Shown here: positions 11,588-48,058 of the stretch, piece after piece
Position numbering within the stretch: the first letter of the stretch is position 1
Layout: each line of letters begins with the position of its first letter
Assembly (NCBI GenBank): GCA_964402695.1
Contig: CAYODK010000003.1
Span: 22,697 to 86,696 of the forward strand
From: an uncultured Verrucomicrobiota bacterium
GTDB lineage: Bacteria > Verrucomicrobiota > Kiritimatiellia > PWTM01
Direction: 5' to 3'
DNA length: 64,000 nucleotides
Position numbers and translations under genes: made by a program
The notes under the pieces: generated by a model
Databases searched by the model: none
What the model was told of the DNA's origin: nothing
What the model saw: only the letters and a program-made list of their open reading frames with translations

Positions 11588-13159
11588 ATGCACCCAGTGA
11601 GCCGCACGGTCCTTGCCCTGCTGGCCGCCGCCCCCCTCGCCGTCCGTGCGGCGGAGGCGCCGAGGCCGAACATCGTATTCATCATCGCCGACGACATGAC
11701 GCGGGAAATGATGAACTGGACGCCCGAGGGGCGCGGGAAGAACCTGACGCCGAACCTCGACCGCCTCGCCGCCGGGGGCGTGATCCTGGAAGGCCAGCAC
11801 ATCGTGTCGCCGGTCTGCACGCCGAGCCGCTTCAATTGCCTGACCGGCCGCTACGCGAGCCGCGACCGGAGCCCGGAATTCGTTCGCCTGACCGAGCGGG
11901 CCGGCCAGACGATCATCACGTGGAACGCCCACATCCTTCCGAACGATCCGACGCTGCCGAAAAGGCTGCAGAAGGCGGGCTATCGGACCGGCTTCGCCGG
12001 CAAGAACCACACGATGAGCTCGCCGCGCCCGCCGAACGTTGCCCCCGACGCCGACGCCCGGGCGCCGGCTGTGGCCGCGAAGCTCCGCGACTACGGCGCG
12101 GCGATGCGCGAGGCGGTCCGCGCCTGCGGGTTCGACTTCGCCGGGGCCGTCTACGCCGGCAACGCGGAGCAGCACAAACCCGCCGTGTTGCGCGTCCACA
12201 ACATGGACACCATCGCCAAGGCCGGCCTCGACTTCCTCGACGAGGCGAAGGCGGGACCCTTCTTCCTCTACTTCGCCCCGACGCTCTGCCATTCGCCCTA
12301 CACGCCGGAGCAATCCTGGAAGGCGGACCCGCTCGCGACGCCCGAGGGCTTCCTCGACAAGGCCCCCGACGTCCTTCCGCCACGCGCGACGCTGCCGGAG
12401 CGGCTGAAGAAGGCGGGGATCGCCGGCCGCAACAAGGAGATGGTGCTGTGGCTCGACGACGCCGTCGGCGCGCTGCTGGCGCGGCTGGAGACCCACGGCG
12501 TGCTGGACCGGACGATCGTCTTCTTCTTCAACGACAACGGGCAGGAGGGGAAGGGCTCCATCTACCAGTGCGCAACCCACAACCCGTCGATCGTCTGGCG
12601 CAAGGGCGGCTTCCCCTGCGGACGGACCTGCGCCGCGCGCGTGACGAACCTCGACTTCGCGCCGACGATCCTCGACCTCGCCGGCGCGCCCGCGCCTCCG
12701 GACGCCTTCGACGGCGTCAGCTTCCGCGCCGCGCTCGAGGGCGGGCCGTGGAAGGACCGCGACGCCCTCTTTTTCGAACTCGGCTTCACGCGCGGGGTGC
12801 TGATCGGGGACTGGAAGTACATCGCGCTCCGCTACCCGCCGAACCCCGAGACGCTGGTCGACCTCCGGAAACCCGGGGAGTACGGGCCGATTGCGGAGAT
12901 CATCGCCCGAAAGGCCGGTCCGAACCCTCCGCCCTACGGCCACATCGGCGGCAACAACAACGAATTCAAGACGCTGAAGGGACAGGCCGCCTACTTCGAT
13001 GCGGACCAGCTCTACGACCTCGCCGCCGACCCGGGCGAGCAGGTGAACCTCGCGGGCAGGCCCGAGCACGCGGCGAAACTGGCGGCGATGAAGGCCGCGC
13101 TGCGGGCGCACCTCGAACGGATGCCGGGCGGCTTCGCCGATCTCAAGCCGGCCCGGTGA
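11588..13159 (+). CDS. sulfatase (formylglycine-dependent)
   Basis: 523 aa, counted back from the stop. Signal MHPVSRTVLALLAAAPLAVRAAEA. PNIVFIIADD. CTPSRFNCLTGRY (C-x-P-S-R). Confidence 0.9.
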   Translation: MHPVSRTVLALLAAAPLAVRAAEAPRPNIVFIIADDMTREMMNWTPEGRGKNLTPNLDRLAAGGVILEGQHIVSPVCTPSRFNCLTGRYASRDRSPEFVRLTERAGQTIITWNAHILPNDPTLPKRLQKAGYRTGFAGKNHTMSSPRPPNVAPDADARAPAVAAKLRDYGAAMREAVRACGFDFAGAVYAGNAEQHKPAVLRVHNMDTIAKAGLDFLDEAKAGPFFLYFAPTLCHSPYTPEQSWKADPLATPEGFLDKAPDVLPPRATLPERLKKAGIAGRNKEMVLWLDDAVGALLARLETHGVLDRTIVFFFNDNGQEGKGSIYQCATHNPSIVWRKGGFPCGRTCAARVTNLDFAPTILDLAGAPAPPDAFDGVSFRAALEGGPWKDRDALFFELGFTRGVLIGDWKYIALRYPPNPETLVDLRKPGEYGPIAEIIARKAGPNPPPYGHIGGNNNEFKTLKGQAAYFDADQLYDLAADPGEQVNLAGRPEHAAKLAAMKAALRAHLERMPGGFADLKPAR

Positions 13160-15283: not shown

Positions 15284-16651
15284 ATGCGACGGTGGGCGGT
15301 TCTTGCGGCGGGGCTGGCGGCGTGGGTCGGCATCTCGGGCGCGGCGGAGCCGCGGCCGAACGTGGTCGTGATCATGACCGACGACCAGGGCACGATCGAC
15401 GCGCATTGCTGTGGCGCGGCGGATCTCGAAACGCCGGCGATCGACCGGCTCGCCCGGGAGGGGGTCCGGTTCACGCAGTTCTACTCCGCCGCCCCCGTCT
15501 GCTCGCCGTCGCGCGCCGGTCTGCTGACCGGCCGCTACCCTCCCCGCGCCGGCGTGCCGAACAACGCGCCGTCGGAATCCGGCAGGGCCGGCATGCCGCC
15601 ATCCGAGGTCACGATGGCCGAGATGTTCAAGGCCGCCGGCTACGCGACCGCTCACATCGGCAAGTGGCACCTCGGCTACTCGCCGGAGACGATGCCGAAC
15701 GCGCAGGGCTTCGACCTCTCGTTCGGCCACATGGGCGGCTGCATCGACAACTACTCGCACTTCTTCTACTGGCAGGGTCCGAACCGCCATGACCTGCACC
15801 GCGACGGCGTCGAGATCCACCGTCCCGGCCGCTTCTTCCCGGACCTGATGGTCGGGGAGGCCTCGGCGTTCCTCCGCGCGAACCGTGCCCGCCCCTTCTT
15901 CGTCTACTTCGCGCTCAACCTGCCGCACTACCCGTACCAGGGCGACGAGAAGTGGCTGAAGCGCTACGCGTCGCTGCCGCACCCGAGGAACCTCTACGCG
16001 GCCTTCGTCTCGACGCTCGACGAGCGCGTCGGGCGGCTGCTCGACGAACTCGATGCCCTCGGCCTCGCGTCGAACACGGTCGTCGTCTACCAGTCCGACA
16101 ACGGCCACTCGACCGAGGAGCGCGCGCACTTCGGCGGCGGATCGGCCGGCGAGTACCGCGGCGCCAAGTTCAGCCTGTTCGAGGGCGGCATCCGCGTCCC
16201 GGCGATCGTCCGCTGGCCCGGCCGCATCCCCGCCGGCGCGACACGCGACCAGGTCGGCCACGGCTGCGACTGGCTGCCGACGCTCGCGGAGTTGTGCGGC
16301 GTGAAACCGCCGGAGGCCGCGCTCGACGGGCGCAGCCTCGTCCCGGTGATCCGCGACGCCTCGGCGCCGACGCCGCACGACGTGCTGCACTGGCAGGTCG
16401 GCGGGCCGTGGGCCGTGCGCGAGGGCGACTGGAAGCTGCTCGGCCAGCCGCAGGACACGGGCGTCCGCCCGGCGGAGAAGCTGCCGAAGCTGTTCCTCGT
16501 CAACCTGCGCGACGACCCGCGCGAGCGGACCAACCTCGCCGACCGCGAGCCCGCGCGCGTGCAGCGCATGAAGGCGCTCCACGAGGCGTGGGTGGAAGAC
16601 ATCGGACGTCAACAACCAACATCCAACAGCCAACAACCAACAACCAAGTAG
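15284..16651 (+). CDS. sulfatase
   Basis: Start at Met27 of track ORF 15206..16651. Signal MRRWAVLAAGLAAWVGISGAAEP. PNVVVIMTDDQG. CSPSRAGLLTGRY. The last ~13 codons (QQPTSNSQQPTTK) are a translation of the heptamer repeat. Confidence 0.9.
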   Translation: MRRWAVLAAGLAAWVGISGAAEPRPNVVVIMTDDQGTIDAHCCGAADLETPAIDRLAREGVRFTQFYSAAPVCSPSRAGLLTGRYPPRAGVPNNAPSESGRAGMPPSEVTMAEMFKAAGYATAHIGKWHLGYSPETMPNAQGFDLSFGHMGGCIDNYSHFFYWQGPNRHDLHRDGVEIHRPGRFFPDLMVGEASAFLRANRARPFFVYFALNLPHYPYQGDEKWLKRYASLPHPRNLYAAFVSTLDERVGRLLDELDALGLASNTVVVYQSDNGHSTEERAHFGGGSAGEYRGAKFSLFEGGIRVPAIVRWPGRIPAGATRDQVGHGCDWLPTLAELCGVKPPEAALDGRSLVPVIRDASAPTPHDVLHWQVGGPWAVREGDWKLLGQPQDTGVRPAEKLPKLFLVNLRDDPRERTNLADREPARVQRMKALHEAWVEDIGRQQPTSNSQQPTTK

Positions 16652-26936: not shown

Positions 26937-27026
26937 CCCGCCAGAAGTACGGGAAGCCGATGCCCGGCGCAAGGCGCTCGTCGCATTGAAGGTGCCTTGC
27001 GACGCGGCCGACGCTATAAACGGGGC

Positions 27027-28415
27027 ATGAAGACTGCTCTCCGTTGGTCGTGCCGCACCGCCGGCGTCCTGGCGTTTGCGATCCAGTCCGTCCCCGCCCA
27101 GAACCCGCCGTACGACGTGTTTCCGCCTGCGGAGCCGCCGGTGTACCGCGTGCGCTACGAAGCCTCGTCGGAGCCGGGCGGACTGGCCTTCCCCGTGAAT
27201 TACACGATCTGGATTCCGCCCGGGGCGAAGACGCTGCGCGGAGTGATCGTCCACCAGCACGGCTGCGGCGAGGGCTCGTGCAAGTCCGGCCTGACCGGCG
27301 CCTACGACCTGCACTGGCGGGCGCTGGCGAAGGCCCATGACTGCGCGCTGCTCGCGCCGGCCTACGAGCAGCCGGAGAAGGCCGAGTGCCAGAAGTGGTG
27401 CGATCCGCGCAACGGGTCGGACGCGGCCTTCCAGCGCGGCCTCGCCGATCTCGGCGCGCGGTCGGGCCATCCCGAACTCGCGACGGTGCCGTGGGCGCTC
27501 TGGGGACACAGCGGCGGCGGGCACTGGGCGGGCGCCATGACGCTGCTGCACCCCGACCGCGTCGCCGCCGCGTGGCTGCGCTCGGGTGTGCCGTTGCTGG
27601 CGGCCAATCCGGACCGGCCGACGATCCGGCCGCACGCGCTGCCCGACGCGCCGCTCGGGGTTCCGGTCATGTGCAACCCCGGCACGAAGGAGGGCGTGAC
27701 CGTCAGGGAGGGCCGCTTCAAGGGCGTCTGGCCCGCCAACGAGGCCTTCTTCGGCGCCGTGCGGTCGCGCGGCGGACTGATCGGCATCGCGATCGATCCG
27801 CTCACCAGCCACGAGTGCGGCAACCAGCGCTACCTCGCGATCCCGTGGCTCGACGCCTGCCTGCGCGCCCGCCTGCCGGAGACGCCCGGCGGCACGCTCC
27901 GCCCGATGCCTTCCACCGCCGCGTGGCTGGCCCCCGTGGGCGGCACGGAGGCCGTGCCCGCCGCGTCGTTCCGGGGCGATCCGCTCAAGGCCGTGTGGCT
28001 GCCGGACGGGGCCGTGGCGCGGAAGTGGATGCAGTACGTGAAGGACACGGCGGTCGCCGACGCCACGCCGCCGCCCGCGCCCGTGAACGTGCGCGTCGCG
28101 GACAACGTCCTCACGTGGGAGGCCGAGGCCGATCCCGAGAGCGGCATCGCGCGGTTCGTCATCGAGCGCGACGGCCAGGCGATCGCGCGCGTGCCGGAGA
28201 AGGACGCGAATCCCTTCGGCCGCCCGGTCTTCCAGGGCCTCCAGTACAGCGACACGCCGGTCCAGCCGCTCGTGCCGATGCGCTACGCCGACACCAACGC
28301 CGCCCCCGGCCGCACGCACGCCTACCGCGTCATCGCCGTCAACACCGCCGGCCTGCAGTCGCCGCCGGCCGGTGCGGACGGGAAGGATGGCAAGCGAATG
28401 GGGGCGGGCGAGTAG
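27027..28415 (+). CDS. alpha/beta-hydrolase esterase with C-terminal fibronectin type III domain
   Basis: Signal [31 protein letters not shown] nucleophile elbow. FN3-like [41 protein letters not shown]...[16 protein letters not shown]. Confidence 0.7.
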
Positions 28416-28592
28416 AGGGCGGGCGTTGGCGGGGACGGAAACCGAGGGAGCTGGCGTCCGGAATCACATCCTGATGGAGGGGCGAGCTACCGCGAGCCCG
28501 AACGCAGCGCACCCGATGGGGCGCATCTGCGTTTCATTGCATCGAGGACAACGATGCTCGCGCGGGCTTCCCGTTCGGCCGGGCGAGCCGCC

Positions 28593-28868: not shown

Positions 28869-28908
28869 CTCTCGTGGCATGCTGTCCGCGACACGCGGGA
28901 GGAGACTG

Positions 28909-30711
28909 ATGAAACGAGCGGCACGGCTTGTTGCAATGGCGGCGGGGCTGGCGGCGGCGGCCGGGGCGGTCGAGCCCGTGGACCGCGACCTCATTCCCGA
29001 GGCGCGGGCGGCGCTTGGCTACCTCGAGTCCGTCTACGGGAAGCAGTCGCTCGGGGCGGTGTCGGGCACCGACAACGCGGGGTTCGTCCAGGAGGTGTCC
29101 GGGCGACTGCCGGCGATCGTCTCGTTCGACCTGTGCGGCTGGAACAGCCCGACGTGGGGCAAGACCTACACGCCGGTGGTCGAGCGCTCGGTCGAGGCGG
29201 CGAAGGAATGGTGGGACCGCGGCGGCATCGTCGCGATGCAGTTCCACTGGAAGCATCCCGCGAAGACCAACGGCTCCGCGTGGGTCGGCAAGCACGGCAA
29301 CAGCCCGCCGAGCGGCCCCTACGACATGGCGAACGTCACGAAGCCCGGCACGCCCGCGCACGGGGCGTTCATGACGGATCTCGCGAGGCACGCCGACTAC
29401 CTGCAGCGGCTCGCCGACGCCCGCGTGCCGGTGCTGTGGCGTCCGTTCCACGAGATCGACGGCGGCTGGTTCTGGTGGACGGATCAGGAGACCCCGGAGA
29501 ACACCGCCGCCGCCTGGCGGATGATGTTCGACTTCCTCGTGAAGGAGCGGAAGCTCCACAACCTGATCTGGGTCTTCAATCCCGGCGTCCACGCGGGCGG
29601 CTACAAGAAGATGCTGCGCGAGACGAAGAAGGAGGCCACGCTCGCCAACGAGATCGCGTTCCGCAAGCGCTACTACCCCGGCGCGGCGTACTGCGACCTC
29701 GCGGGCATCGACATCTACCCGAACAAGGCCGAGGGCTACGGCGATCCCACGGGCGACACGTTCCCGAAGGCGTGGGAGATCATGACGCAGGTCGCGCCGG
29801 GGAAGATGCTCGCGATGTGCGAGTCGTCCGGCGTGATCCATCCCGGTCTCATGGAGAAGAACGGCCCGCGCTGGCTCTACACGCTCCAGTGGTTCCCCGG
29901 CGAGCCCGCCTATGCCCGCGAGGTCTACAACCATGACTTCCTCGTTACCCTCGACGAATTGCCGCCGCTGAACCCCGACGCCCTGCCGTTCGCGCGGCTG
30001 GTCGCGCCGGCGGACGGCGCGGCGCCGCCCGCGGGCGCGGTGGAGCTGAAGGCCGACACCGGCGCGCGGACGGACGGCATCGCGCAGGTCGAGTTCCTCG
30101 CCCTGGCCGGACCGTGGAAGAACGGGTGGATGATGAAGGCCTCGGAGAAGGAGGAGTCCTTCGCCGGCGCGACGTCGGTCGGCGTCGCGAAGGCGGCGCC
30201 GTTCACCGTGTCATGGAAGGCCCCGCCCGCCGGGCTGCACACGGTCGTCGCGCGCATCACGGACCGGAAGGGCCGGTCGACGCTGTCCAACGCGGCGCGG
30301 GTGAGTGCGGGGCTCGACAACCTGGCGCGGCGCGGGACGTTCACCGCCTCGTCGGGGGCCGACGGCGCGGCGAAGGCGGGCGACGGCGACCCCTTCACGT
30401 CGTGGAACGGCGAGAAGAAGGACGACCAGTGGCTGGCGGTCGATCTCGGCGCGGCGAAGACGGTCGGCGCCGTCGCGGTGTCGTGGTGGAAGGCCTACGC
30501 GAAGGCGTGGGAGATCCAGGTCTCCGACGACGGCGCGGCGTGGCGGACGGTCCACGCGGTGCCGAAGAAGAGCGAGTTCCTCGGCAACACCGACGTGGTC
30601 CGGTTCGACCCGGTCCGCGCGCGGCACGTCCGCCTTCTCTGCAAGCAGCGCGCCACCGACTGGGGCGGCTACACGGTCTACGAACTCGGCGTCTACGGGA
30701 GCCTTCCATGA
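28909..30711 (+). CDS. glycoside hydrolase family 26 (mannanase-like) with C-terminal F5/8 type C (CBM32-like) domain
   Basis: Signal MKRAARLVAMAAGLAAAAGAVEP. WRPFHEIDGGWFWW GH26 signature. Discoidin-like FTSWNGEKKDDQWLAVDLGAAKTVGAVAVSWW...GGYTVYELGVYG. Confidence 0.85.
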   Translation: MKRAARLVAMAAGLAAAAGAVEPVDRDLIPEARAALGYLESVYGKQSLGAVSGTDNAGFVQEVSGRLPAIVSFDLCGWNSPTWGKTYTPVVERSVEAAKEWWDRGGIVAMQFHWKHPAKTNGSAWVGKHGNSPPSGPYDMANVTKPGTPAHGAFMTDLARHADYLQRLADARVPVLWRPFHEIDGGWFWWTDQETPENTAAAWRMMFDFLVKERKLHNLIWVFNPGVHAGGYKKMLRETKKEATLANEIAFRKRYYPGAAYCDLAGIDIYPNKAEGYGDPTGDTFPKAWEIMTQVAPGKMLAMCESSGVIHPGLMEKNGPRWLYTLQWFPGEPAYAREVYNHDFLVTLDELPPLNPDALPFARLVAPADGAAPPAGAVELKADTGARTDGIAQVEFLALAGPWKNGWMMKASEKEESFAGATSVGVAKAAPFTVSWKAPPAGLHTVVARITDRKGRSTLSNAARVSAGLDNLARRGTFTASSGADGAAKAGDGDPFTSWNGEKKDDQWLAVDLGAAKTVGAVAVSWWKAYAKAWEIQVSDDGAAWRTVHAVPKKSEFLGNTDVVRFDPVRARHVRLLCKQRATDWGGYTVYELGVYGSLP

Positions 30712-32239
30712 ATCGCGCGACGGCGGGCACGGTGGTCTTCGGACTGGCAGCGGCGCTCGGCTGGGCGACACGGGGGACGGCGGCGGCCGCCCCCGCGGCG
30801 CGGGGGGACCGGGGTGTTGTGGCCGGGGGCCCCCCCCGCCCCGCGCCGGGGGGGACGACCTGCGCCCGGAGCTGGGCTGCTCCGGCGTGAAGGGGATCCA
30901 CTCGCCGGCCATCGACCGGCTCGCCGCACGGGGCACGGTCTTCGAGCGCGCCTACTGCCAGCAGGCGGTCTGCTCGCCGTCGCGCACGAGCCTGCTGACC
31001 GGCTGCCGGCCGGACACGACGCGGGTCTACGACCTCGAGACGCATTTCCGGAAGAACCTGCCGGACGTCGTCACGCTGCCGCAGCATTTCAAGGCCCACG
31101 GCTACTTCACGCGCAGCGTCGGCAAGATCTTCCACGGCGGGCTCGACGACGCGCCGTCGTGGTCCGAACCGCCCGCAAAGGCCGGCCGGCCGATGTACGC
31201 GCTGCCGGTGAACAGGGACCTGGTCGCCCGCAAGGCCGAGGCGGCGAAGGGCCGCGAGTTCAAGACCGCCAGCGCCCGCTACAACGCGATGACCGGTCCG
31301 TCGACCGAATGCGCCGACGTTCCGGACAACGCCTACTCCGACGGCGCGATCGCCGACGCCGCCATCGAGATGCTGCGCGCCGCGAAGGACAGGCCGTTCT
31401 TCCTCGCCGTCGGCTTCCTGAAACCGCACCTGCCCTTCATCGCACCGAAGCGGTACTGGGATCTCTACAGGCGGGACGGGATCGCCACCGCGCCGAACCC
31501 GTTCGCCCCCGACGGCGCGCCGCGCTTCGCGCTGCCCGACTGGGGCGAGATGCGCGCCTACTCGGACATCCCGCGCACCGGTCCGCTGCCGGAGGAGCAG
31601 GCGCGCCTGCTCAAGCACGGCTACTACGCCTGCGTCAGCTACATGGACGCCCAGCTCGGGCGCGTGCTCGACGAACTGGACCGCCTCGGCCTGCGCGAGA
31701 CGACCGTCGTCGTCCTCTGGGGCGACCACGGCTGGAAGCTCGGCGACCACGGCGCGTGGTGCAAGCACACCAACTTCGAGGTCGACACCCGCGCGCCGCT
31801 GATCTGCGCCGCGCCGGGGCGGAAGGGCGCGGGGCGCCCCAGCCGCGCGCTGGTCGAGTTCGTCGACATTTACCCGTCGCTGTGCGAGCTCGCCGGCCTG
31901 CCGCCGCCGCCGCACCTGGAGGGCCTGAGCTTCGCGCCGCTGCTCGACGCGCCCGACCGGCCCTGGAAGCCCGCCGCGTTCAGCCAGTACCCGCGCGGCC
32001 CGGTCATGGGCCACACGATGCGCACCGACCGGTACCGGTTCACGCGCTGGGTCGCGAAGGACGGCACCGAATCCGCCCGCGAGCTCTACGACCACGGGGC
32101 GGATCCGCAGGAGAACCGCAACATCGCCGAGACGCCGGAGAACCGCTCACGGGTCGCGGAGCTCACCGCGCAGATGCAGGCCGGCTGGCAGGCCGCCCGC
32201 GCCGCGGCCGCCGGCGGCGCGAAGGACAACCGGCCCTGA
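30708..32239 (+). pseudogene. sulfatase (iduronate-2-sulfatase-like) with an apparent frameshift between signal peptide and catalytic domain, in G/C homopolymer tracts
   Basis: ATG 30708 overlaps the GH26 stop and encodes MNRATAGTVVFGLAAALGWATRGTAAAAPA... in a frame that stops at 30890. The sulfatase body (DDLRPELGCSGV...CSPSRTSLLTGCRPD) sits in another frame (track ORF 30305..32239) with no start or signal of its own. The junction lies in gggggg / cccccccc / ggggggg runs (~30800-30855). One extra G would give ...APGGDDLRPELGC. Confidence 0.6.
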
Positions 32240-32361
32240 TTCGCGACAGTTTCCTGTCGCCTCATGTCCGTCTTTGCCCTCCGCCGGCTTCCGCGAAAGG
32301 ATCGTGGGTGCGGCACGATTCGTATTGACGGTGCGAATGTTTCGTATTGTACTTACGAATC

Positions 32362-33591
32362 ATGACACGTTATCGCAGGCGGGAGGTGGGGGTATTGCTG
32401 GCGCGGGCGCTGAAGCAGGCGCCGGTGGTGGTGGTCAGCGGGCTGCGCCAGTCGGGGAAGAGCACGCTGCTGCGGCAGGATCCGGCGGTCAGCGCCGGCC
32501 GCGCGTACCGGACTCTCGACGACCTGGACCTGCTCGCCGGCGCGCAGGCGGCGCCGCGTCCGTTCCTGGAGGCGGAGCCGGTGATGGCGCTGGATGAGGT
32601 GCAGCGTCTGCCATCGCTGTTCCTGCCCCTGAAGCAGACCGTCGATGAGGACCGCCGTCCGGGCCGCTTTGTCCTGACGGGCTCGGCCAACCTGCTGCTG
32701 CTCAAGAGCGTGGCGGACAGCCTGGCGGGTCGCGCGGTGTACGCCACGCTGCACCCAATGAACCGGCGCGAGATCCTGGGCCGCATCGACCGTCCCCCGG
32801 CGACGGTCCGGTTCCTGGCCGAAGGACGATGGCCGTCGGTCCGGGACGTGCCCGCGGTGACAGAGTCCGAGATCCTGCGCGGCGGATTCCCGGAAGTGGC
32901 CCTGCATCCGGACCTCGATGCGACGCTGTGGTTCGAGGGCTTCGAGCGGACGTATCTGGAGCGCGATGTGCGGGACCTGCGGCAGGTGGCCGACCTCGTG
33001 AGCTTCCGCCGGCTCCTTCGCCTGACGGCCCTGCGGGTGGGCGGCGTTCTGAACGTCAACGGGCTGGCGCGCGACGCGCAGTTGCCCGAGGCGACGGTGC
33101 GCAATCATCTGAACCTGATGGAGACGCTGATGGTCATCCGCCGGCTGCCGCCCTTCCGCGGCAACCGAAGCGCGCGGCTGATCAAGGCGCCGAAGCTGTA
33201 TCTTGCCGATACGGGGCTGGCCGCCTTCCTGGCCGGTGTGCGGGATATCGGGGCCGGCTCCGCGGAACCCTTGCGGGGCGCGCTGATCGAGAACTATGTT
33301 GTCCAGAACCTGATCGCCGCGATGGAACCGCACCTCGCCGGCGTGCAGTTCCATTACTGGCACGAGCAGGGGCGGCACGAAGTGGATCTAGTGGTCGAAT
33401 ACGGACGGCAGGTGCTGGCGATCGAGATCAAGGCCGGCGGACGCCTGGCGCCGGGGGACACCCGCGGGCTCGAAGCGTTCATGGCTCGCACCCCCGGGTG
33501 CGTGGGCGGGGTCGTCGGCTACCTCGGTCGCGACGTGGTGCCGTTGGGAGCGAAGATCCGGGCCGTTCCGCTGTCGCTGCTGCTTTCCTGA
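32362..33591 (+). CDS. AAA-family ATPase with C-terminal DUF4143-like domain
   Basis: Walker A VVVSGLRQSGKSTLL, LALDEVQ Walker B-like. Alternative start 32347. Preceded by an unusually AT-rich segment with TTCGTA/TACGAA inverted repeats. Confidence 0.75.
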   Translation: MTRYRRREVGVLLARALKQAPVVVVSGLRQSGKSTLLRQDPAVSAGRAYRTLDDLDLLAGAQAAPRPFLEAEPVMALDEVQRLPSLFLPLKQTVDEDRRPGRFVLTGSANLLLLKSVADSLAGRAVYATLHPMNRREILGRIDRPPATVRFLAEGRWPSVRDVPAVTESEILRGGFPEVALHPDLDATLWFEGFERTYLERDVRDLRQVADLVSFRRLLRLTALRVGGVLNVNGLARDAQLPEATVRNHLNLMETLMVIRRLPPFRGNRSARLIKAPKLYLADTGLAAFLAGVRDIGAGSAEPLRGALIENYVVQNLIAAMEPHLAGVQFHYWHEQGRHEVDLVVEYGRQVLAIEIKAGGRLAPGDTRGLEAFMARTPGCVGGVVGYLGRDVVPLGAKIRAVPLSLLLS

Positions 33592-34035
33592 AGTGTCACG
33601 CTCCACTTGAATCGCCGGGACTTCCCGAGCCCCCGCATCGGCATGGGCCGATCCGCTCCTGCCTGTCCGCCGGAGCCTCGGGTTGCGAAGGCGAAAGCGG
33701 ATCCCCGCGGTGCTCGCGGGAGATGAAGATCGCTGCGCTCAACGACGACCGCGCCGTCATCGAGCGCATTCCGCCATCGCCCCGGGCGGCTACGACGGAC
33801 AGGCCTGCGCCACCTCGGCCTGTGGCGTGCCCACCATAGCTTCAGCGAAGGAGGGGGACAGGGCGTGCGCGTCACGCCCGCCACCTGCCCCGCGTGGAAG
33901 AAGAAGGCCAGGCCCCTTGCAGCATCGCAGCCCGGAGGCTGAGCCGTCGGCCGGGGTCCCGCGGGGCCGGCTTCAATTCCTTCCTGCGATCGGTCAGGAT
34001 CCGGCCGCGTGGTGCGTTGCATTCATCGGTGCACG

Positions 34036-34563
34036 ATGGCCCTGTCGCACGAAGAGATCATGCGGAGCCTGTTCGCGGCCCGGTCGAGGCTGTCCGCGGC
34101 GGCGTGGGTCGTCGTGCGCGACGCCCAGGCGGCGGAGGACCTTTTCCAGAACGTCGCGCTGAAGGCCATGACGAAGAACGTCGTGTTCGAGCACGAGGGG
34201 GCGTTGCTTTCGTGGGCCACCGTGTCCATCCGGCGCGAGGCGATCGACTGGATCCGGCGTCGCCGGCCCGAACTGCCCGGCCTCGACCCGGACGTTCTCG
34301 ACCTTCTTGACGCGGACGCGCAGGCTTCCGCCGTCGCCGACTCGGGGCGCGTGGGCGCCCTACGGGATTGCCTTGAAGCGGTGCCCGAACCGGCCCGGCG
34401 CCTTCTCGAACTGCGCTATTTCGACGGCCACACGTGCGGCGAGGTGGCCCGCCGGGCCGGGCTCGGGCTCGACGCCGTCTACCAGCGGCTCTCGCGGCTT
34501 CACCGGCAGCTTCGCGCGTGCATCGAACAGCGGCTCGCCGCCGGGGCGGAGGCGGTTCCATGA
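34036..34563 (+). CDS. ECF-type RNA polymerase sigma factor
   Basis: Region-2-like LFQNVALKAM. Region-4 HTH ELRYFDGHTCGEVARRAGLGLDAVYQRLSRLHRQLR. Stop overlaps the anti-sigma start (ATGA). Confidence 0.8.
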   Translation: MALSHEEIMRSLFAARSRLSAAAWVVVRDAQAAEDLFQNVALKAMTKNVVFEHEGALLSWATVSIRREAIDWIRRRRPELPGLDPDVLDLLDADAQASAVADSGRVGALRDCLEAVPEPARRLLELRYFDGHTCGEVARRAGLGLDAVYQRLSRLHRQLRACIEQRLAAGAEAVP

Positions 34564-35864
34564 CGCCCCGCCGCGACACGTTCGACCTGCTGATGCGCCA
34601 CCTCGACGGGCGGCTCTCGGGCGACGACCTCCGCGCGCTGAACGACCTCCTGCGCACCGACGCGCGGGCGCGGGACTGGCTCCGGGAGATCGCGGGGCAG
34701 GCCGTGGCGATGGGCGACCTGGCGCGGAGCCGCACGGCGGAGCGACCGGCGGCGGTTGCCGGGCCGGCCCGCAGCCCGCGATGGTTCGCCGCTCCTGCCT
34801 GGGCGGCGCTCGCGGTCGCCTCCGTCGGGCTGATGTGGTGGTGGGCCGGCCCGGCGCGGCGGTCGGCCGCGCTCGTTGACGTGTCCGGCTCCGTGCTCTG
34901 GAGCGATGGCGGGACCGGCCCGCAGCCCGTATCGGCCTCCGGCGCCCGGCTGCATTCGGGCACGCTGGAGACCGTGGGGGCGGTGTCCTCGGCGCAGCTC
35001 CGGTTCGACGACGGAACGTGGTTCACGTTGGGCGGCAACTCGGAACTCTCGTTCTCGGCGGTCGGAGCGACGCGCGTGCATCTTCGCGGCGGATCGCTCA
35101 CCGCATGGGTCGCCCGGCAGCCTCCGGGGCGGCCCCTGGTCGTGCGCACGCCGACGGCGGAGGTGGAGGTTCTCGGCACCGAGTTCGCCGTCAACACCGT
35201 GGCCGACCAGACACAGCTCAACGTGGAGACGGGACGGGTCCGGCTGCGAAGACTCGTGGACGGACGCGTCGTCGAGGTCGCGGCGCGGCACGAGGCCGTG
35301 GCGTCGCTCGACGCACAGCAGCCTCTGGTGGCGGTTGCGCCGGCGGTTCCGCCGGGCGAGTGGAACGCCGATCTCGCCTCCGCCCCGACGGGCGGATCGA
35401 AGGGCGAACCGATTGCGGCGACCGGCGCCCGGCCCGCATGCTGGCGCGCCGTGCCCCTGGTCATGGGTCGCCGCGCCGCCGGATCGCCCGTCATCCACCA
35501 CGGGATCAGTGTCCGCGAGACGTCCCGCTCCCCGGCGGGATCGTTCGTATCGCTGTCGTCGGACAGCGAGGTCGTGCTGCGCTGGCGAACGGACCGGCCG
35601 TCGGGCCTCTTTGTCTTCCTGATCACGCAGCGCCCGGGCGGGGGCTTCGGCGGGAACTTCGAAATCAAGACGGCCGCGTTGGCGGGATCGGACGACGGCG
35701 GCGGGTGGCGGCGGGCGGCGCTTCCGCTCCGCGATTTCCGCCCCCTTCATCCCGGCCGGGCGGCTTTCGCGGGCCACGGCGTCTCTGCGGTTCTGGTGAC
35801 GACGTACGGCACGGACGCGGGCCTGGAGGTGGCGGCGGTGCGGATCGGGAGCGCCCGGCCATGA
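34560..35864 (+). CDS. FecR-domain anti-sigma factor, single-pass membrane protein
   Basis: Start at Met43 of track ORF 34434..35864. TM WAALAVASVGLMWWWAG. FecR-like LRFDDGTWFTLGGNSELSF...GRVRL. Confidence 0.8.
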   Translation: MTPRRDTFDLLMRHLDGRLSGDDLRALNDLLRTDARARDWLREIAGQAVAMGDLARSRTAERPAAVAGPARSPRWFAAPAWAALAVASVGLMWWWAGPARRSAALVDVSGSVLWSDGGTGPQPVSASGARLHSGTLETVGAVSSAQLRFDDGTWFTLGGNSELSFSAVGATRVHLRGGSLTAWVARQPPGRPLVVRTPTAEVEVLGTEFAVNTVADQTQLNVETGRVRLRRLVDGRVVEVAARHEAVASLDAQQPLVAVAPAVPPGEWNADLASAPTGGSKGEPIAATGARPACWRAVPLVMGRRAAGSPVIHHGISVRETSRSPAGSFVSLSSDSEVVLRWRTDRPSGLFVFLITQRPGGGFGGNFEIKTAALAGSDDGGGWRRAALPLRDFRPLHPGRAAFAGHGVSAVLVTTYGTDAGLEVAAVRIGSARP

Positions 35865-38701
35865 CCGTGCGGCACGCACGGGCCGCGGCGATCCTGCTGG
35901 CCCTCGCGCCGGCGGTCCGCGGCGCCGACACGCTGGAGTCTGCGGAAGCCCTGCTGGCCGCGGCGACGGGGGCGACCGGAGGGCGCGAGAAGACGCGCGT
36001 CTGCGGGCTGACCGACGCCCTGGCCGACCGCGCCGCGGCGCTGCTTTCGGACCCCGATCCGTTCGTCCGCGGAATCGCCGAATGGGCGATCGCGATCCGG
36101 GTCGGCACGGACAACGACCGGCGCCGGTACTGGCCGCGGCCGGATCCGCCGGCGTGGTATGCGCGGTGGAGCCGCCTCCGGCCGGAGGAGATGCTGGACG
36201 CCGACTACGTGCGCCAGGCCGTGGCCCTCGGCGAACACCGGTCGGCGGAGGCGATGCTGAGGTCCGCCGACGCAATTCTCCGCCGCGCGACGGGCCCCTC
36301 CGGGGAGGTGCGGCGGCGCGGGACCGAAGCGCGGCGCGCCCGCCTCGATCGCGATGTCGCGGCCCTTGCCGGGGCGCACGAGGCGGTGGTCCGTCTGGGC
36401 CGGCAAACGCCCGTCCCCATGACCGGGCTGCGCTCCGCGTGGCTGGCCCTCCGCCGCGCGGCGCGCCCGGTGGTGATGGCCCACCCGGACCTGGACTTCG
36501 ACGCGATGGTCTTCCTGACCCGCTACTCCTGCATCGGCCCCCACAACCTTGCATCCTACAGCTACCACCCGGACCATTACCGTCCCGGCGGTGACATCGT
36601 CGTGCAGCAGGGTCTCGACCCCGCCGCACCCGTGCGCGGAATCCTCGCCGGCCGGCCCGGCCCGGGCCACCTGCGCGGCATGGACCTCTGGTGGGACGCC
36701 GGCCGCGTCTGCTTCGCCTTCACGCCCCAGCCCGGCTGGACGAACGGGCCGGTCGGAGACGGAGGCGTCCATTCCGAACCGACGCACGTGTATGAGGTGC
36801 GCCTCGACGGAACCGGGCTGCGAGCGCTCACCCACGACCCGAAGTGGATCGACACCGAGCCGGCCTACCTGCCCGACGGCGGCGTGATCTTCGGCTCGGA
36901 CCGCGCCGGCATCGGGAGCGAATGCGGCGGATGGACGCAGAACGCCGGCGTTCTGAACCTCTTCCGGGTCTCCGCCGACGGGCGCACGGTGCGGCGCCTG
37001 ACGGTGAACAAGGACTACGACCGCTATCCGCACACGCTCGACAACGGCACGGTCGCCTTCCTCCGCTGGGACTACGCCGAGCGCCAGTTCTTCAGCTGCC
37101 ACTCGCTCTGGACCGTCCGCCCGGATGGCACGATGGCCGATGCCCTCTACAAGTCGCACATCCAGGCGCCGCCCTACTCGCTGCGCGATCCCCGTCCGGT
37201 CCCGGGCGGCACCAAGCTCGTGGCGATCGCCTGCGGGCACCACACCCTCGCCGAGGGCGCCGTGACGGTCGTCGACCCCCGCCGCGGCGTCAACGAGTCC
37301 GGCGGCATGCGCTACATCACACCGCACGCCGGCCCGACCGAGGGCGGGCTCGGCCGCATCGAGCCGGTCGCCGAGGGCGGGGTCGTCGATGCCGGCGGGC
37401 TCTATCAGACCCCCTGGCCGCTCTCGGAACGGGGCTTCCTGGTGTCCTACGCCTACGCGCATCCGGCGTCCGCGGGCTTCGCGCTGTACTACATCGACGC
37501 CTGGGGAAACAAGGAACTGCTCCGCCGCGACCCGGTCCTCGACTGCGCGTACCCCATGCCGCTTCGCCCGCGCCCGCAGCCGCCCGTGCTCGCGGAGGCC
37601 GCGGAACCCGGCCGGCCGCATGCGGTCTGCCATGTCAGCGACGTCTACCACGACCTTGACGGCGTCCCGCGCGGCGCCGTGAAGTGGTTGCGGATCTCCG
37701 AGCGCGTGCCCTGGCCGTTCGACAAGTCGCCGCGCGGCGAACTGCGCTGGGTGCCGGGCAACCCCTTCGCCCCGCAGTTTGGTTACTGGACATGGGCGCC
37801 GGTCCGCGTCATCGGCATCGTGCCGGTCGCGGCGGACGGCTCGGCCCACTTCCGGGTCCCTGCGGGCCTGGGCGTCTACTTCCAGGCGCTCGACGAGCGC
37901 TTCATGGAGATCCGCCGGATGCGGAGCCACGTCGCCTTCCAGCCGGGCGAGACGCGATCGTGCCTCGGCTGTCACGAGACCCGGGGAGGCGTCACCCCCT
38001 CGACCTACTGGACGGCCTCCACGGCCGCGCGCCGCCCGCCCGACGTTCCGGCGCCGCCGCCGTGGGGCGACACGGCCCTGTTCGATTTCGAGCGGATGAT
38101 CCAGCCGATCCTTGACCGCCGCTGCGCCGGCTGCCATGGCGCGACCCGGCCGAAGGGGGGGCTCGATCTGACCGCGACCCCCGACCCGTACGGCTTTGCG
38201 CAGTCCTACCGCTCGCTCTTCGGACTGAAGCCCGGCCGGCCGACCCCGGTCTCCGATGGCGACGGCTGGTACCGGAAGCACTTCCCCGGCGTGCCGTCGT
38301 ACGAGGACAAGGACTGGTACCGGCTCGTTCTCGAAAACCGGGCGCCCGGCCAGCTCGTCGCGGTCTCGGACCGCACCACCTCGCCCTGGCAGAAACCGGT
38401 CGACGCAAGCATCTCCCGGCCGATGCAGTTCGGCTCGCACCAAAGCGGGCTTGTGCTCAAGCTGCTGCGCGACGACGCGCACCGGCGTGCGGCCGCGCTC
38501 ACGGACGACGAATGGCACCTGCTCGTCGCGTGGATCGACGCCAACGCACCCTACCGTGCCCCGTTCTTCCAGAAGTTCGACGAGAACGGCGCGCCGCTCG
38601 CCCGGCCGTGGCGCGTGGAACTCGCGCTGCGGTCCCCCTGGGCCGCGGAACCGGCGGGGATGACCGGCCCCGTGCCGGTCCCGGAAGGAGGGACACCGTG
38701 A
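35861..38701 (+). CDS. large secreted protein: PD40/TolB-like beta-propeller region plus C-terminal Planctomycete-type cytochrome c (PSCyt-like) domain
   Basis: Signal MTVRHARAAAILLALAPAVRGA. LPDGGVIFGSDRAGIG and RVSADGRTVRRLT propeller-like repeats. Two CxxCH motifs (CLGCHE; IQPILDRRCAGCHGATRPKGGLDLTA). Confidence 0.65.
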   Translation: MTVRHARAAAILLALAPAVRGADTLESAEALLAAATGATGGREKTRVCGLTDALADRAAALLSDPDPFVRGIAEWAIAIRVGTDNDRRRYWPRPDPPAWYARWSRLRPEEMLDADYVRQAVALGEHRSAEAMLRSADAILRRATGPSGEVRRRGTEARRARLDRDVAALAGAHEAVVRLGRQTPVPMTGLRSAWLALRRAARPVVMAHPDLDFDAMVFLTRYSCIGPHNLASYSYHPDHYRPGGDIVVQQGLDPAAPVRGILAGRPGPGHLRGMDLWWDAGRVCFAFTPQPGWTNGPVGDGGVHSEPTHVYEVRLDGTGLRALTHDPKWIDTEPAYLPDGGVIFGSDRAGIGSECGGWTQNAGVLNLFRVSADGRTVRRLTVNKDYDRYPHTLDNGTVAFLRWDYAERQFFSCHSLWTVRPDGTMADALYKSHIQAPPYSLRDPRPVPGGTKLVAIACGHHTLAEGAVTVVDPRRGVNESGGMRYITPHAGPTEGGLGRIEPVAEGGVVDAGGLYQTPWPLSERGFLVSYAYAHPASAGFALYYIDAWGNKELLRRDPVLDCAYPMPLRPRPQPPVLAEAAEPGRPHAVCHVSDVYHDLDGVPRGAVKWLRISERVPWPFDKSPRGELRWVPGNPFAPQFGYWTWAPVRVIGIVPVAADGSAHFRVPAGLGVYFQALDERFMEIRRMRSHVAFQPGETRSCLGCHETRGGVTPSTYWTASTAARRPPDVPAPPPWGDTALFDFERMIQPILDRRCAGCHGATRPKGGLDLTATPDPYGFAQSYRSLFGLKPGRPTPVSDGDGWYRKHFPGVPSYEDKDWYRLVLENRAPGQLVAVSDRTTSPWQKPVDASISRPMQFGSHQSGLVLKLLRDDAHRRAAALTDDEWHLLVAWIDANAPYRAPFFQKFDENGAPLARPWRVELALRSPWAAEPAGMTGPVPVPEGGTP

Positions 38702-45035: not shown

Positions 45036-46631
45036 ATGAGGATGCAGGCGGTGGCGATGGCGGTGGCGGCGGCCCTGGGCGTGCCGGGGCTCGCGGGGAC
45101 GGGGATGGCCGCGCAGCCGGCGGAGGCGCCCGCCGCGACGCGGCTGGGGATCAACCTCGCCGGCCCGGCGGACTGGAACAGCGAACTGCCGTTCGTCGAT
45201 GTCTTTCGCCAGTCGAGACCGTGGATCAGCCAGAAAGAGGGCGCCGCGTGGGGCAAGGGGCCGGACCTCGCGCTGGACGAGTTCGGCTGGGTGAAGCGGC
45301 TGGAGCCCGGCTGCTACGCCGAGAGCATGCTCTGCACGGTCGGCGGCGGACACTACCCCGGCGGCGTCTACACGGTCCTCTACGAGGGCGAGGGAAAGCT
45401 GGGCGTCGGACACAACGCGAAGATCGTCGACGCCGCGCCCGGCCGGATGCGCGTCGACGTCGATTCGTCCAAGGGCGGCTGGTCGCTGCAGATCCGCGAG
45501 ACGAACCCGCAGAACCCCGTGCGCGACATCCGCGTCCTCATGCCCGGCTTCGAGGCGACGGGGCAGACCGAGCCGTTTCATCCGGTCTTTCTGAAGCGAT
45601 GGAAGGGCTTCGCGTGTTTCCGGTTCATGGACTGGATGCATACCAATGGCTCGGAGATCCGCACGTGGGCCGACCGCCCGACGCTGCGCCACGCGACGTT
45701 CTCCAGGCGCGGCGTCGCGCTGGAATGGATGATCGACCTGTGCAACCGCCAGAAGGCCGATCCGTGGTTCTGCATGCCGCACCTGGCCGACGACGACTAC
45801 GTGCGACGGTTCGCGCGCATGGTGAAGGAGCGGCTGGACCCGGGACGGAAGATCTACATCGAATATTCCAACGAGGTCTGGAACGGCCAGTTCGCGCAGA
45901 GCCGGTACGCCGGCGAGCAGGGCGTGAAGCTCGGCCTCGGTCCGAAGGACAAGCCGTGGGAGGCGGGCTGGCACTATACCGCCGTCCGGTCGGTGGAGAT
46001 CTTCCGCATCTGGGAGGAGGTCTTCGGCGGGCACGACCGGTTCGTCCGCGTGCTGCCCGTGCAGACCGGCGTCGGCGCGGTCGCGGACGGCGTGTGCGGC
46101 TTCCGCGACGCCGCGAAGCACGCCGACGCGATGGCCGTCGCGCCGTACATGGGCTACAGCATCGGGCGCGGGAAGACGGCGGACCTCGGCCCGACGATGC
46201 GCGACTGGACCGCGGACCAGATGCTCGACCACTTCGAGAAGACCGGCTTCGCCGACGCCCTGCAGCGGATGGCGAAAGACAAGGCCTCCGCCGCGAAGCA
46301 CGGCCTCGCGCTCGTCGCCTACGAGGGCGGGCAGCACATGGTCGCGTTCGTGAAGGACCGCGACCTCACGGCGGCCCTCACGAAGACGATGCACGCCTGC
46401 AACCGGCATTCGCGGATGGGCGACCTCTACCGGCGCTATTTCGCGGAATGGGCCCGGCTCGGCGGCGGCACGTTCTGTCACTTCTCCAGCATCGGCAACT
46501 GGAGCAACCACGGCGCGTGGGGGTTGGCCGAACACTACGACAGCCGGCCCGCCGACTACCCGAAGCTGGCCGCGGCCCTGGATTGGGCGAAGACGCTCGG
46601 CCAGCCGGTTGAACTCGAGGCCCGCAAGTGA
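45036..46631 (+). CDS. clan GH-A (GH5-like) glycoside hydrolase
   Basis: Signal MRMQAVAMAVAAALGVPGLAGTGMAA. IEYSNEVWN. Confidence 0.6.
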   Translation: MRMQAVAMAVAAALGVPGLAGTGMAAQPAEAPAATRLGINLAGPADWNSELPFVDVFRQSRPWISQKEGAAWGKGPDLALDEFGWVKRLEPGCYAESMLCTVGGGHYPGGVYTVLYEGEGKLGVGHNAKIVDAAPGRMRVDVDSSKGGWSLQIRETNPQNPVRDIRVLMPGFEATGQTEPFHPVFLKRWKGFACFRFMDWMHTNGSEIRTWADRPTLRHATFSRRGVALEWMIDLCNRQKADPWFCMPHLADDDYVRRFARMVKERLDPGRKIYIEYSNEVWNGQFAQSRYAGEQGVKLGLGPKDKPWEAGWHYTAVRSVEIFRIWEEVFGGHDRFVRVLPVQTGVGAVADGVCGFRDAAKHADAMAVAPYMGYSIGRGKTADLGPTMRDWTADQMLDHFEKTGFADALQRMAKDKASAAKHGLALVAYEGGQHMVAFVKDRDLTAALTKTMHACNRHSRMGDLYRRYFAEWARLGGGTFCHFSSIGNWSNHGAWGLAEHYDSRPADYPKLAAALDWAKTLGQPVELEARK

Positions 46632-48058
46632 AGCCCGCGCCCACCGCGCCGCGCCTCGTCTGCCTGGGGCTGCTGCTTGCCGTTTCGCCCGCATCCAGTC
46701 AGGAAGGCCGGCCGGCGGCGGGCGGCAGGCCCAATGTCCTCTTCATCATCGCCGACGACCTCAACCGCAGCCTGCCGTGCTACGGCCATTCCATCGTCAA
46801 GACGCCGAACGTGGACCGGCTGGCGGCGCGGGCGGTCCGCTTCGACCGCGCCTACTGCCAGTATCCGGTGTGCAGCCCGTCGCGCGTTTCGTTCCTGAGC
46901 GGGCGGCGGCCGGAACAGACGCGGATGTTCGGCAACGAGGACGCCTCGCGCACGCCGTCGCTGAAGGACGCCGTGTTCCTGCCGGAGTTCTTCCGGCAGC
47001 AGGGCTACTTCACCGCGCGCGTCGGCAAGGTCTTTCACATCGGCCGCGACGTGCCGGAGTGCTGGGACGTGACCGAGGAAGGCACGCCGGACGGCAAGGT
47101 CATCTACCAGCCCCAGGAGCCGGACAAGCTCGGCCTGCGGGAGAGCATCGCGCAGGAGGGCGAACTCGACGGCGACACGGGCGAAGGCGGGCACTGGTAC
47201 CGGCTCGCGCCCGTCGAGGAGAAGCTGATCGACCCGAGCACCGCGCGTCGCGTTTCGGCACTGATCGAACAGGGCGCGACGGGCGGCCGGCCGTTCTTCG
47301 TCGCGTGCGGTTTCCGCCGTCCGCATCTCCCGTGGATGGCGCCGGAGGAGTTCTTCGCGCCCTACCCGCCGGAGACCCTGCCGCTGCCGGCCCGGGGCGA
47401 GGTGCCGCGCCCCGTCGGCCCGGTGCAAGGCAAGGCGCCCGCCGCGTCGGACGACTCGCGGCGCGCCGCCCTGCGCGCCTACTTTGCCTGCATCAGCTTC
47501 ATGGACCGGCAGCTCGGCCGCGTGCTCGACACGATGGACCGGCTCAAGCTCTGGGACAACACGGTCGTGCTGCTGCTCGGCGACAACGGCTACCACCTCG
47601 GCACGCGCGGCGGCTACTGGGGCAAGGGCACGCCCTACGAGGAAAGCTGCGGCGTGCCGCTGCTGATCGCCGCTCCCGGCAGGGCCAAGGCGGTCGGTTG
47701 CCCGCGCGTGGTGGAATACGTGGACTTCTACCCGACGCTCGTCGACCTCTGCGGCCTGCCCGCGCAGCGCGACCTGGCCGGCCGCAGCCTGCGCCCGCTG
47801 CTCGACGATCCCGCCGCGCCGTGGGGCCACGCCGCATTCAGCATCAACGCCCGGAACAACCAGCCGTGGAATCTCGCCGTCAGCACCGAGCGGTTCCGGT
47901 ACATCGAATACGCGGATGAGAAGAAGCCGTGCGAACTCTACGACATCCAAACCGACCCGCGCGAGTGGACGAATCTCGCCGCCGCACCGGAGCACGCCGC
48001 GACGCTGGATGCTCTGCGGAAGCTGGCGGCGGAGCACCGACAGAGATTCTGGAGGTAG
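46628..48058 (+). CDS. sulfatase
   Basis: GTG start overlapping the previous stop. PNVLFIIADDLN. CQYPVCSPSRVSFLSGRRP. Confidence 0.9.
   Translation: MKPAPTAPRLVCLGLLLAVSPASSQEGRPAAGGRPNVLFIIADDLNRSLPCYGHSIVKTPNVDRLAARAVRFDRAYCQYPVCSPSRVSFLSGRRPEQTRMFGNEDASRTPSLKDAVFLPEFFRQQGYFTARVGKVFHIGRDVPECWDVTEEGTPDGKVIYQPQEPDKLGLRESIAQEGELDGDTGEGGHWYRLAPVEEKLIDPSTARRVSALIEQGATGGRPFFVACGFRRPHLPWMAPEEFFAPYPPETLPLPARGEVPRPVGPVQGKAPAASDDSRRAALRAYFACISFMDRQLGRVLDTMDRLKLWDNTVVLLLGDNGYHLGTRGGYWGKGTPYEESCGVPLLIAAPGRAKAVGCPRVVEYVDFYPTLVDLCGLPAQRDLAGRSLRPLLDDPAAPWGHAAFSINARNNQPWNLAVSTERFRYIEYADEKKPCELYDIQTDPREWTNLAAAPEHAATLDALRKLAAEHRQRFWR

Follow-up and report, generated by a model that had tools for sequence, protein, structure and literature searches.

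Comparison with two intact orthologs shows that the sulfatase gene starting at position 30708 of the window (the whole 64,000-nucleotide stretch of DNA analysed here) is split between two reading frames by the replacement of 24 nt with 50 nt, an exchange that, read at the level of sequence, also deletes strand 1 of the enzyme. Because this core strand is removed and the frame is shifted, no functional enzyme can come from the gene as written. The frame shift follows from the net gain of 26 nt, which makes the lesion a replacement and not a one-base slip. The 50-nt segment, referred to below as the patch, is listed with the other features of the locus in Table 1.

Table 1. Features of the split sulfatase gene, its surroundings and the other S1 sulfatase genes of the window
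Feature	Position	Strand	Remarks
Further S1 sulfatase genes	11597-13159, 15314-16651, 46628-48058	+	strand-1 region NxxxI..DD intact, C[TS]PSR motif
Upstream gene	28909..30711	+	secreted GH26 glycoside hydrolase, C-terminal F5/8 type C domain
Native sulfatase 5' end	30708..30803	+	start codon and signal peptide MNRATAGTVVFGLAAALGWATRGTAAAAPAAR; aligns with L002
G6 run	30802..30807	+	left edge of patch
Patch (lesion)	30804..30853	+	50 nt for the orthologs' 24 nt; net +26 nt
G5 then C8, GGGGGCCCCCCCC	30825..30837	+	G5 30825-29, C8 30830-37
G7 run	30848..30854	+	right edge of patch; G8 or a -1 ribosomal slip would join the frames
Sulfatase body	30854..32239	+	metal-binding DD motif (DDLRPELGC...) to stop; otherwise intact
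Private Tyr to Ser, LGCYG (TAC to TCC)	30881..30883	+	9 codons (28 nt) past the patch
Stop TGA of signal-peptide frame	30888..30890	+	overlaps GTG 30887-30889 (GTGA)
CSPSR	30971..30985	+	formylglycine motif C-x-P-x-R

The gene lies directly behind a GH26 glycoside hydrolase gene whose product begins MKRAARLV, with its ATG confirmed, and matches Glyco_hydro_26 (1.3e-41) and F5_F8_type_C (5.4e-20) in Pfam. An earlier note on this DNA had described a sulfatase start coupled to the GH26 gene, a signal peptide in the frame of that start with a stop at 30890, and a catalytic frame that holds the CSPSR motif and has no usable start of its own, and each of these elements was found where it had been placed. 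The sulfatase ATG at 30708 and the GH26 stop TGA at 30709-30711 share an ATGA overlap, which is also present in the ortholog of L002 (described below), and the signal peptide that the 30708 frame encodes is plausible and resembles that of L002 (MKRTMAGAVVFGLAAALGWATRGTAADAPAAR). This arrangement suggests that translation of the native gene is coupled to that of GH26 and that its product is exported via the signal peptide.

The 1386-nt sulfatase body is read in the frame of 30854, other than that of the signal peptide, and a coding-signal scan places the beginning of coding signal in this frame exactly at 30854. The only starts in the body frame are a GTG at 30305, deep within the GH26 gene, and a GTG at 30887, past the DD motif, with none between them. 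Translation of the body-frame ORF from GTG 30305 was ruled out, since coding signal is confined to the part from 30854 and the upstream part overlaps GH26, and reinitiation at GTG 30887 was rejected because its product would have neither signal peptide nor DD motif. No single unbroken ORF therefore carries the sulfatase together with a start and an export signal of its own. Automatic annotation is likely to begin a 450-residue 'sulfatase' at GTG 30887, a product devoid of signal peptide, strand 1 and metal-binding DD.

To judge from its domain matches and motifs, the gene is an S1 formylglycine sulfatase, probably of the iduronate-2-sulfatase-like type (SulfAtlas subfamily S1_7). The body scores 136.7 bits against the S1 domain (PF00884, gathering cut-off 25), the Sulfatase match (E = 1.3e-39) covering profile positions 13-300 of 301, and it also matches SGSH_C (E = 8.5e-16, 58.9 bits). 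The motif CSPSR conforms to the formylglycine pattern C/S-x-P-x-R. The Asp-Asp pair is present, and the strand expected before it in S1 sulfatases is missing in all three frames. The solved chains nearest to the intact ortholog P0001 are 6hhm_A ('Arylsulfatase', E = 3.9e-109) and then human iduronate-2-sulfatase 5fql_A (E = 4.5e-84), and among the homologs returned by a protein search with the body some are labelled 'iduronate 2-sulfatase' by their sources.

That search retrieved thousands of full-length homologs, the closest of 5.8 billion proteins being P0001 (491 residues, 93% amino acid identity), which is encoded on contig L001 (JGI 3300036987). A scan of genome contigs yielded L002 (contig VGWF01000027.1 of the Lentisphaerae MAG K_DeepCast_100m_m2_028), whose sulfatase shares 90% amino acid identity with the body; the best identity among the matches listed was 90% in the genome scan and 80% in the metagenome scan. 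L002 carries the positional ortholog, with an esterase-like gene, a GH26 gene ending GVYGSLP* and the ATGA-coupled sulfatase in the order of the window. Nucleotide identity to L002 is 90-91% over window positions 26990-28516 and 28869-32239, and the GH26 gene is collinear at 91%.

Two segments next to the locus differ in how far they are shared with these contigs. A 449-residue ORF at 27066-28415 (+) has a strong coding signal and 88-90% nucleotide identity in both L001 and L002, and no Pfam match at E <= 1e-5; its neighbours are the GH genes in L002 as in the window, and in L001 it lies upstream of the sulfatase. The ~6.4 kb that follow the sulfatase directly (32240-38680) have no counterpart in L002, where ~1.4 kb of other sequence is found instead. 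This segment opens with a spacer of unusually low GC (52-57% G+C at 32250-32399), and its genes specify an AAA_14/DUF4143 ATPase, an ECF sigma factor, a FecR-type anti-sigma factor and a 950-residue protein in which a CxxCH motif is combined with an HZS_alpha middle domain. It may represent an inserted or variable stretch.

The earlier note had proposed a comparison with orthologs, and the split was seen in neither of the two close ones. Both P0001/L001 and L002 are intact and read in one frame ...(A/D)APAAR MNVLFVAV DDLRPELGCYGVKG.... In the DNA alignment with L002 and L001 the left flank is conserved up to GCGGCGCGG and the right flank from GACGACCTGCGCCCGGAGCTGGGCTGC; between these flanks the orthologs have the 24 nt ATGAAYGTGCTSTTCGTCGCGGTC, encoding MNVLFVAV, and the window has the 50 nt GGGGACCGGGGTGTTGTGGCCGGGGGCCCCCCCCGCCCCGCGCCGGGGGG, with the left flank of the patch reading GACGGCGGCGGCCGCCCCCGCGGCGCGG. 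L002 thus shares with the window the order of the esterase-like, GH26 and sulfatase genes and a near-identical signal peptide, whereas L002 and P0001/L001 differ from it in having a single frame with MNVLFVAV and a Tyr where the window has the patch and a Ser.

The eight lost residues are, as judged by alignment, the most conserved N-terminal element of the family. The pattern xN[VI]LF[IVLF][AP][VAI] stands directly before DD in ~116 of the 120 best homologs, and the alignment with the solved sulfatase 6hhm_A includes the segment. An AlphaFold model of P0001 (mean pLDDT 86, pTM 0.88; mean pLDDT 91 for residues 31-40) shows the lost residues as strand E29-35, which runs into D36-D37. The start of the Pfam Sulfatase match recedes in step, from profile position 2 in P0001 to position 9 once the frames of the window gene are rejoined and position 13 when the body is taken by itself. 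The remark of the earlier note that a rejoined protein would still lack an NVLFI-type first strand is borne out by the orthologs, in which that strand occupies the place of the patch.

A split gene with G/C runs at its junction invites the label 'phase variation', which is refuted here by the two orthologs. The runs G6, C8 and G7 that the earlier note had pointed to are indeed present at the junction, and it was right that one more nucleotide in the last run rejoins the frames, a change from G7 to G8 giving ...APGGDDLRPELGC. More generally, one extra G at whichever of the eight runs nearby puts signal peptide and body into a single ORF, and slippage in G7 or C8 during replication or transcription would on this view switch a full-length exported sulfatase on and off. 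A switch by programmed recoding, that is a -1 slip on G GGG GGG, is formally encoded as well, since CCG GGG GGG in the signal-peptide frame fits X XXY YYZ and the shift lands on GAC GAC CTG. There is also precedent for variation in short tracts, in that C/G tracts as short as C6 can phase-vary in the high-GC Bordetella pertussis (PMC1891110).

The products of such changes nevertheless argue against a switch. Length changes of +1, -2, +4 and -5 were tried on every one of the eight G/C runs from 30772 to 30854, and all 30 frame-restoring changes gave a 14-19 residue linker rich in Gly, Pro, Arg and Cys before DDLRPELGC, with no hydrophobic strand where the conserved strand 1 belongs. As no length change recreates strand 1, there is no 'on' state that slippage could reach, and the -1 slip on CCG GGG GGG, which makes the same product as G8, fails likewise. 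Both close orthologs have ordinary codons in place of the tract, with no frameshift at the site. For recoding, the heptamer is present, but the orthologs are single-frame, an Rfam search at the junction returned no match at E <= 1 and the predicted folding equals that of shuffled sequences. In B. pertussis (67% G+C), moreover, only C/G tracts longer than 8 exceeded chance, even if shorter ones can vary (PMC1891110), and the number of G/C runs of at least 7 in the window (5) equals that expected under a second-order Markov model (4.97). These data show that the lesion is not a phase-variation or recoding switch, and a functional switch of either kind (the earlier note had entertained phase variation) is a reading to which we give hardly any credence: the runs are part of a replacement that deletes a core strand, so no switch is possible.

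It is not the number of long runs but their clustering that sets the patch apart, and the view that such runs are unusual stands only in this respect. The patch is 90% G/C (45 of 50 nt; 26 G, 19 C, 4 T and 1 A), the left half being rich in G and the right half in C. Only 2 of 200 simulated windows had two G/C runs of at least 7 within 25 nt, and the homopolymer load of the patch, with 31 of its 50 nt in runs of at least 4, was reached in none of the 200 simulations (maximum 23). The next-highest load elsewhere in the window is 17, and other stretches with at least 90% G+C lie far below the patch. Since this load is unreached both in the simulations and in the rest of the window, the homopolymer cluster is real and not a product of chance, and the patch is unlike the genomic sequence of the organism as judged within the window.

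Outside the patch the gene shows no decay. The dN/dS of the body is 0.36 against L002 and 0.27 against L001, the value between L001 and L002 being 0.33, and in the three-way alignment the window has the shortest branch, with 33 private changes (18 of them at codon position 3) against 55 and 50. Of 161 columns conserved to at least 95% in 120 homologs, the window differs at 3, of which 2 are common to P0001 and 1 is private; this is the Tyr to Ser change of Table 1, in a column where 113 of 118 homologs have Tyr and none has Ser. Over the ~7 kb aligned with L002 and the 2.7 kb aligned with L001, the patch is the sole out-of-frame coding indel and the sole stretch of low identity, all other coding indels being multiples of three. 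With a single lesion, one private change at a conserved site and a dN/dS like that of the intact orthologs, the gene does not resemble an old, decaying pseudogene. Because the rest of the gene is undecayed, the lesion is either evolutionarily very young or not biological.

A generally error-prone assembly was ruled out as the source. A coding-signal scan of the whole window (~45 genes) found no further frame break, the indels relative to the orthologs keep the frame, and the other long runs examined, C8 at 8180 and G7 at 38155, are in frame, with runs of at least 7 elsewhere in frame or intergenic.

Lesions in orthologous sulfatases were seen in two other MAGs. In a Planctomycetota MAG (GCA_026386955.1, contig JAPLMQ010000142.1; L162, ~1440-1530) the ortholog is likewise split near its N terminus, one frame reading ...RPNILFIAVDDLRPELGCYGE and another resuming SPNIDRLAARG..., a pattern that would imply a short out-of-frame deletion after GCYG. 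In a Rhodopirellula sp. MAG (GCA_012728855.1; L163, 781-1500, and L164) the ortholog lacks its first ~70 codons and begins just before CSPSR. It directly adjoins genes for Y1_Tnp (IS200/IS605-type) and DDE transposases in L163, which suggests truncation by an insertion sequence.

For the lesion in the window we slightly favour, with no better than even confidence, a local sequence or assembly error in an otherwise intact gene over a pseudogene, because outside a stretch of ~95 nt the gene looks to be under purifying selection and the patch is unlike the window's genomic sequence. Such an error would fall in the most G/C-rich, hairpin-prone stretch of the gene and could have arisen where error-laden read ends were fused over a gap in coverage. 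In some assemblers, gaps are closed by linking extended read tips on the strength of an overlap of only ~10 nt. Joining of this kind could set the noisy tails of two strands end to end and lengthen the region, and the organism itself would then have the native ...AAR-MNVLFVAV-DDL... and a working enzyme. G/C-rich regions, GGC motifs and inverted repeats trigger strand-specific Illumina miscalls, dephasing and loss of coverage (PMC3141275). Substitution-type short-read errors alone, however, add no 26 nt, and assembly of the same G/C-rich context succeeded in two other metagenomes (L001, L002). The remainder of the window looks like high-quality consensus, and the disruptions in related genomes (L162, L163/L164) are real; all of this weighs against an error. 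An origin of the patch as two error-washed, degenerate copies of the native sequence, one in the G-rich left half and one in the C-rich right half, was rejected, as 137-239 of 1000 within-half shuffles scored at least as high as the best split alignment (p ~0.14-0.24). A global alignment of the patch to a single copy of the native 24 nt was not significant either.

If the patch is real, the gene would be a very recent pseudogene produced by a single complex deletion-insertion event, a reading whose chance of being right we put somewhat short of even. Aberrant break repair or a template switch in the hairpin-prone G/C stretch, for example, could have removed the strand-1 codons and inserted filler DNA, and the nearby Tyr to Ser change could stem from the same error-prone repair event. 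The frame break and the loss of strand 1 are, after all, in the sequence, and the clean remainder of the window speaks against sloppy assembly. The disrupted orthologs in other assemblies (L162; L163/L164) likewise favour a pseudogene. With four S1 sulfatase genes in the window alone, together with GH2, GH16 and GH26 genes, and 110 to more than 500 sulfatase genes in related PVC bacteria (PMC6388578), such redundancy means that the loss of one should cost little.

The state of the body counts against a pseudogene, for without relaxed selection in its 1386 nt the event would have to be very recent. Addition of ~50 nt of run-rich G/C without a template is not known to us from any bacterial process. 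A copy templated elsewhere in the genome, on the other hand, should look genomic, but the patch has a homopolymer load far beyond anything in the window or the simulations. Templated insertion from nearby was rejected, there being no match of at least 12 nt on either strand elsewhere in the window. A hairpin or quasi-palindrome was rejected too: the patch region holds an inverted repeat with 25-nt arms that are 80% complementary, but it folds no better than shuffled sequences (z = -0.14) and could not be told apart from an effect of G/C composition. We regard it as a long shot that the patch is genuine and the mark of an unusual mutational process of a high-GC PVC bacterium, the near-untemplated synthesis of run-rich G/C filler at a repaired break. 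Were it true, the slippage-prone cluster of runs would have arisen as a by-product and could be the birth of a hypermutable site.

From its gene content, with sulfatases among GH2, GH16 and GH26 genes, the window is a cluster for the degradation of sulfated polysaccharides. Its other longest homopolymer, a C8 run at 8180-8187, likewise falls where the gene of an exported protein begins, inside the region coding for the signal peptide (MKTLPPLPSLPSLAAAIAACGLALA...) of an intact GH2 and F5/8 type C gene (~8169-10733, +). A real lesion would mean that a polysaccharide-degradation cluster has only just lost one sulfatase out of many redundant paralogs; with an artefact, the enzyme of the organism is normal and the record needs correcting. 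The biological weight of the finding is small and the finding itself ordinary. It carries the caution that orthologs should be checked before runs at a frame break are called a contingency locus.

Set beside S1 sulfatases of the 6hhm_A/5fql_A type, the window gene has the same Sulfatase and SGSH_C domains, DD pair, CSPSR motif, signal peptide and glycoside hydrolase neighbours, and differs from the iduronate-2-sulfatase type in missing the first β-strand before DD and in having its ORF split over two frames. What the locus has in common with the fim, bapC and tcfA tracts of B. pertussis (PMC1891110) is a set of G/C runs close to where the gene of an exported protein begins, so placed that a 1-base change alters the frame. 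Unlike those contingency loci, the window has neither a tract in its orthologs nor a functional 'on' state, and its tracts do not surpass the length above which chance is exceeded in a high-GC genome. The disrupted orthologs of L162 and L163/L164 share with the window an N-terminal lesion in an otherwise conserved paralog of a sulfatase-rich PVC genome; their lesions are of ordinary kinds, a short deletion in one and a truncation beside a transposase in the other, whereas that of the window consists of run-rich G/C filler.
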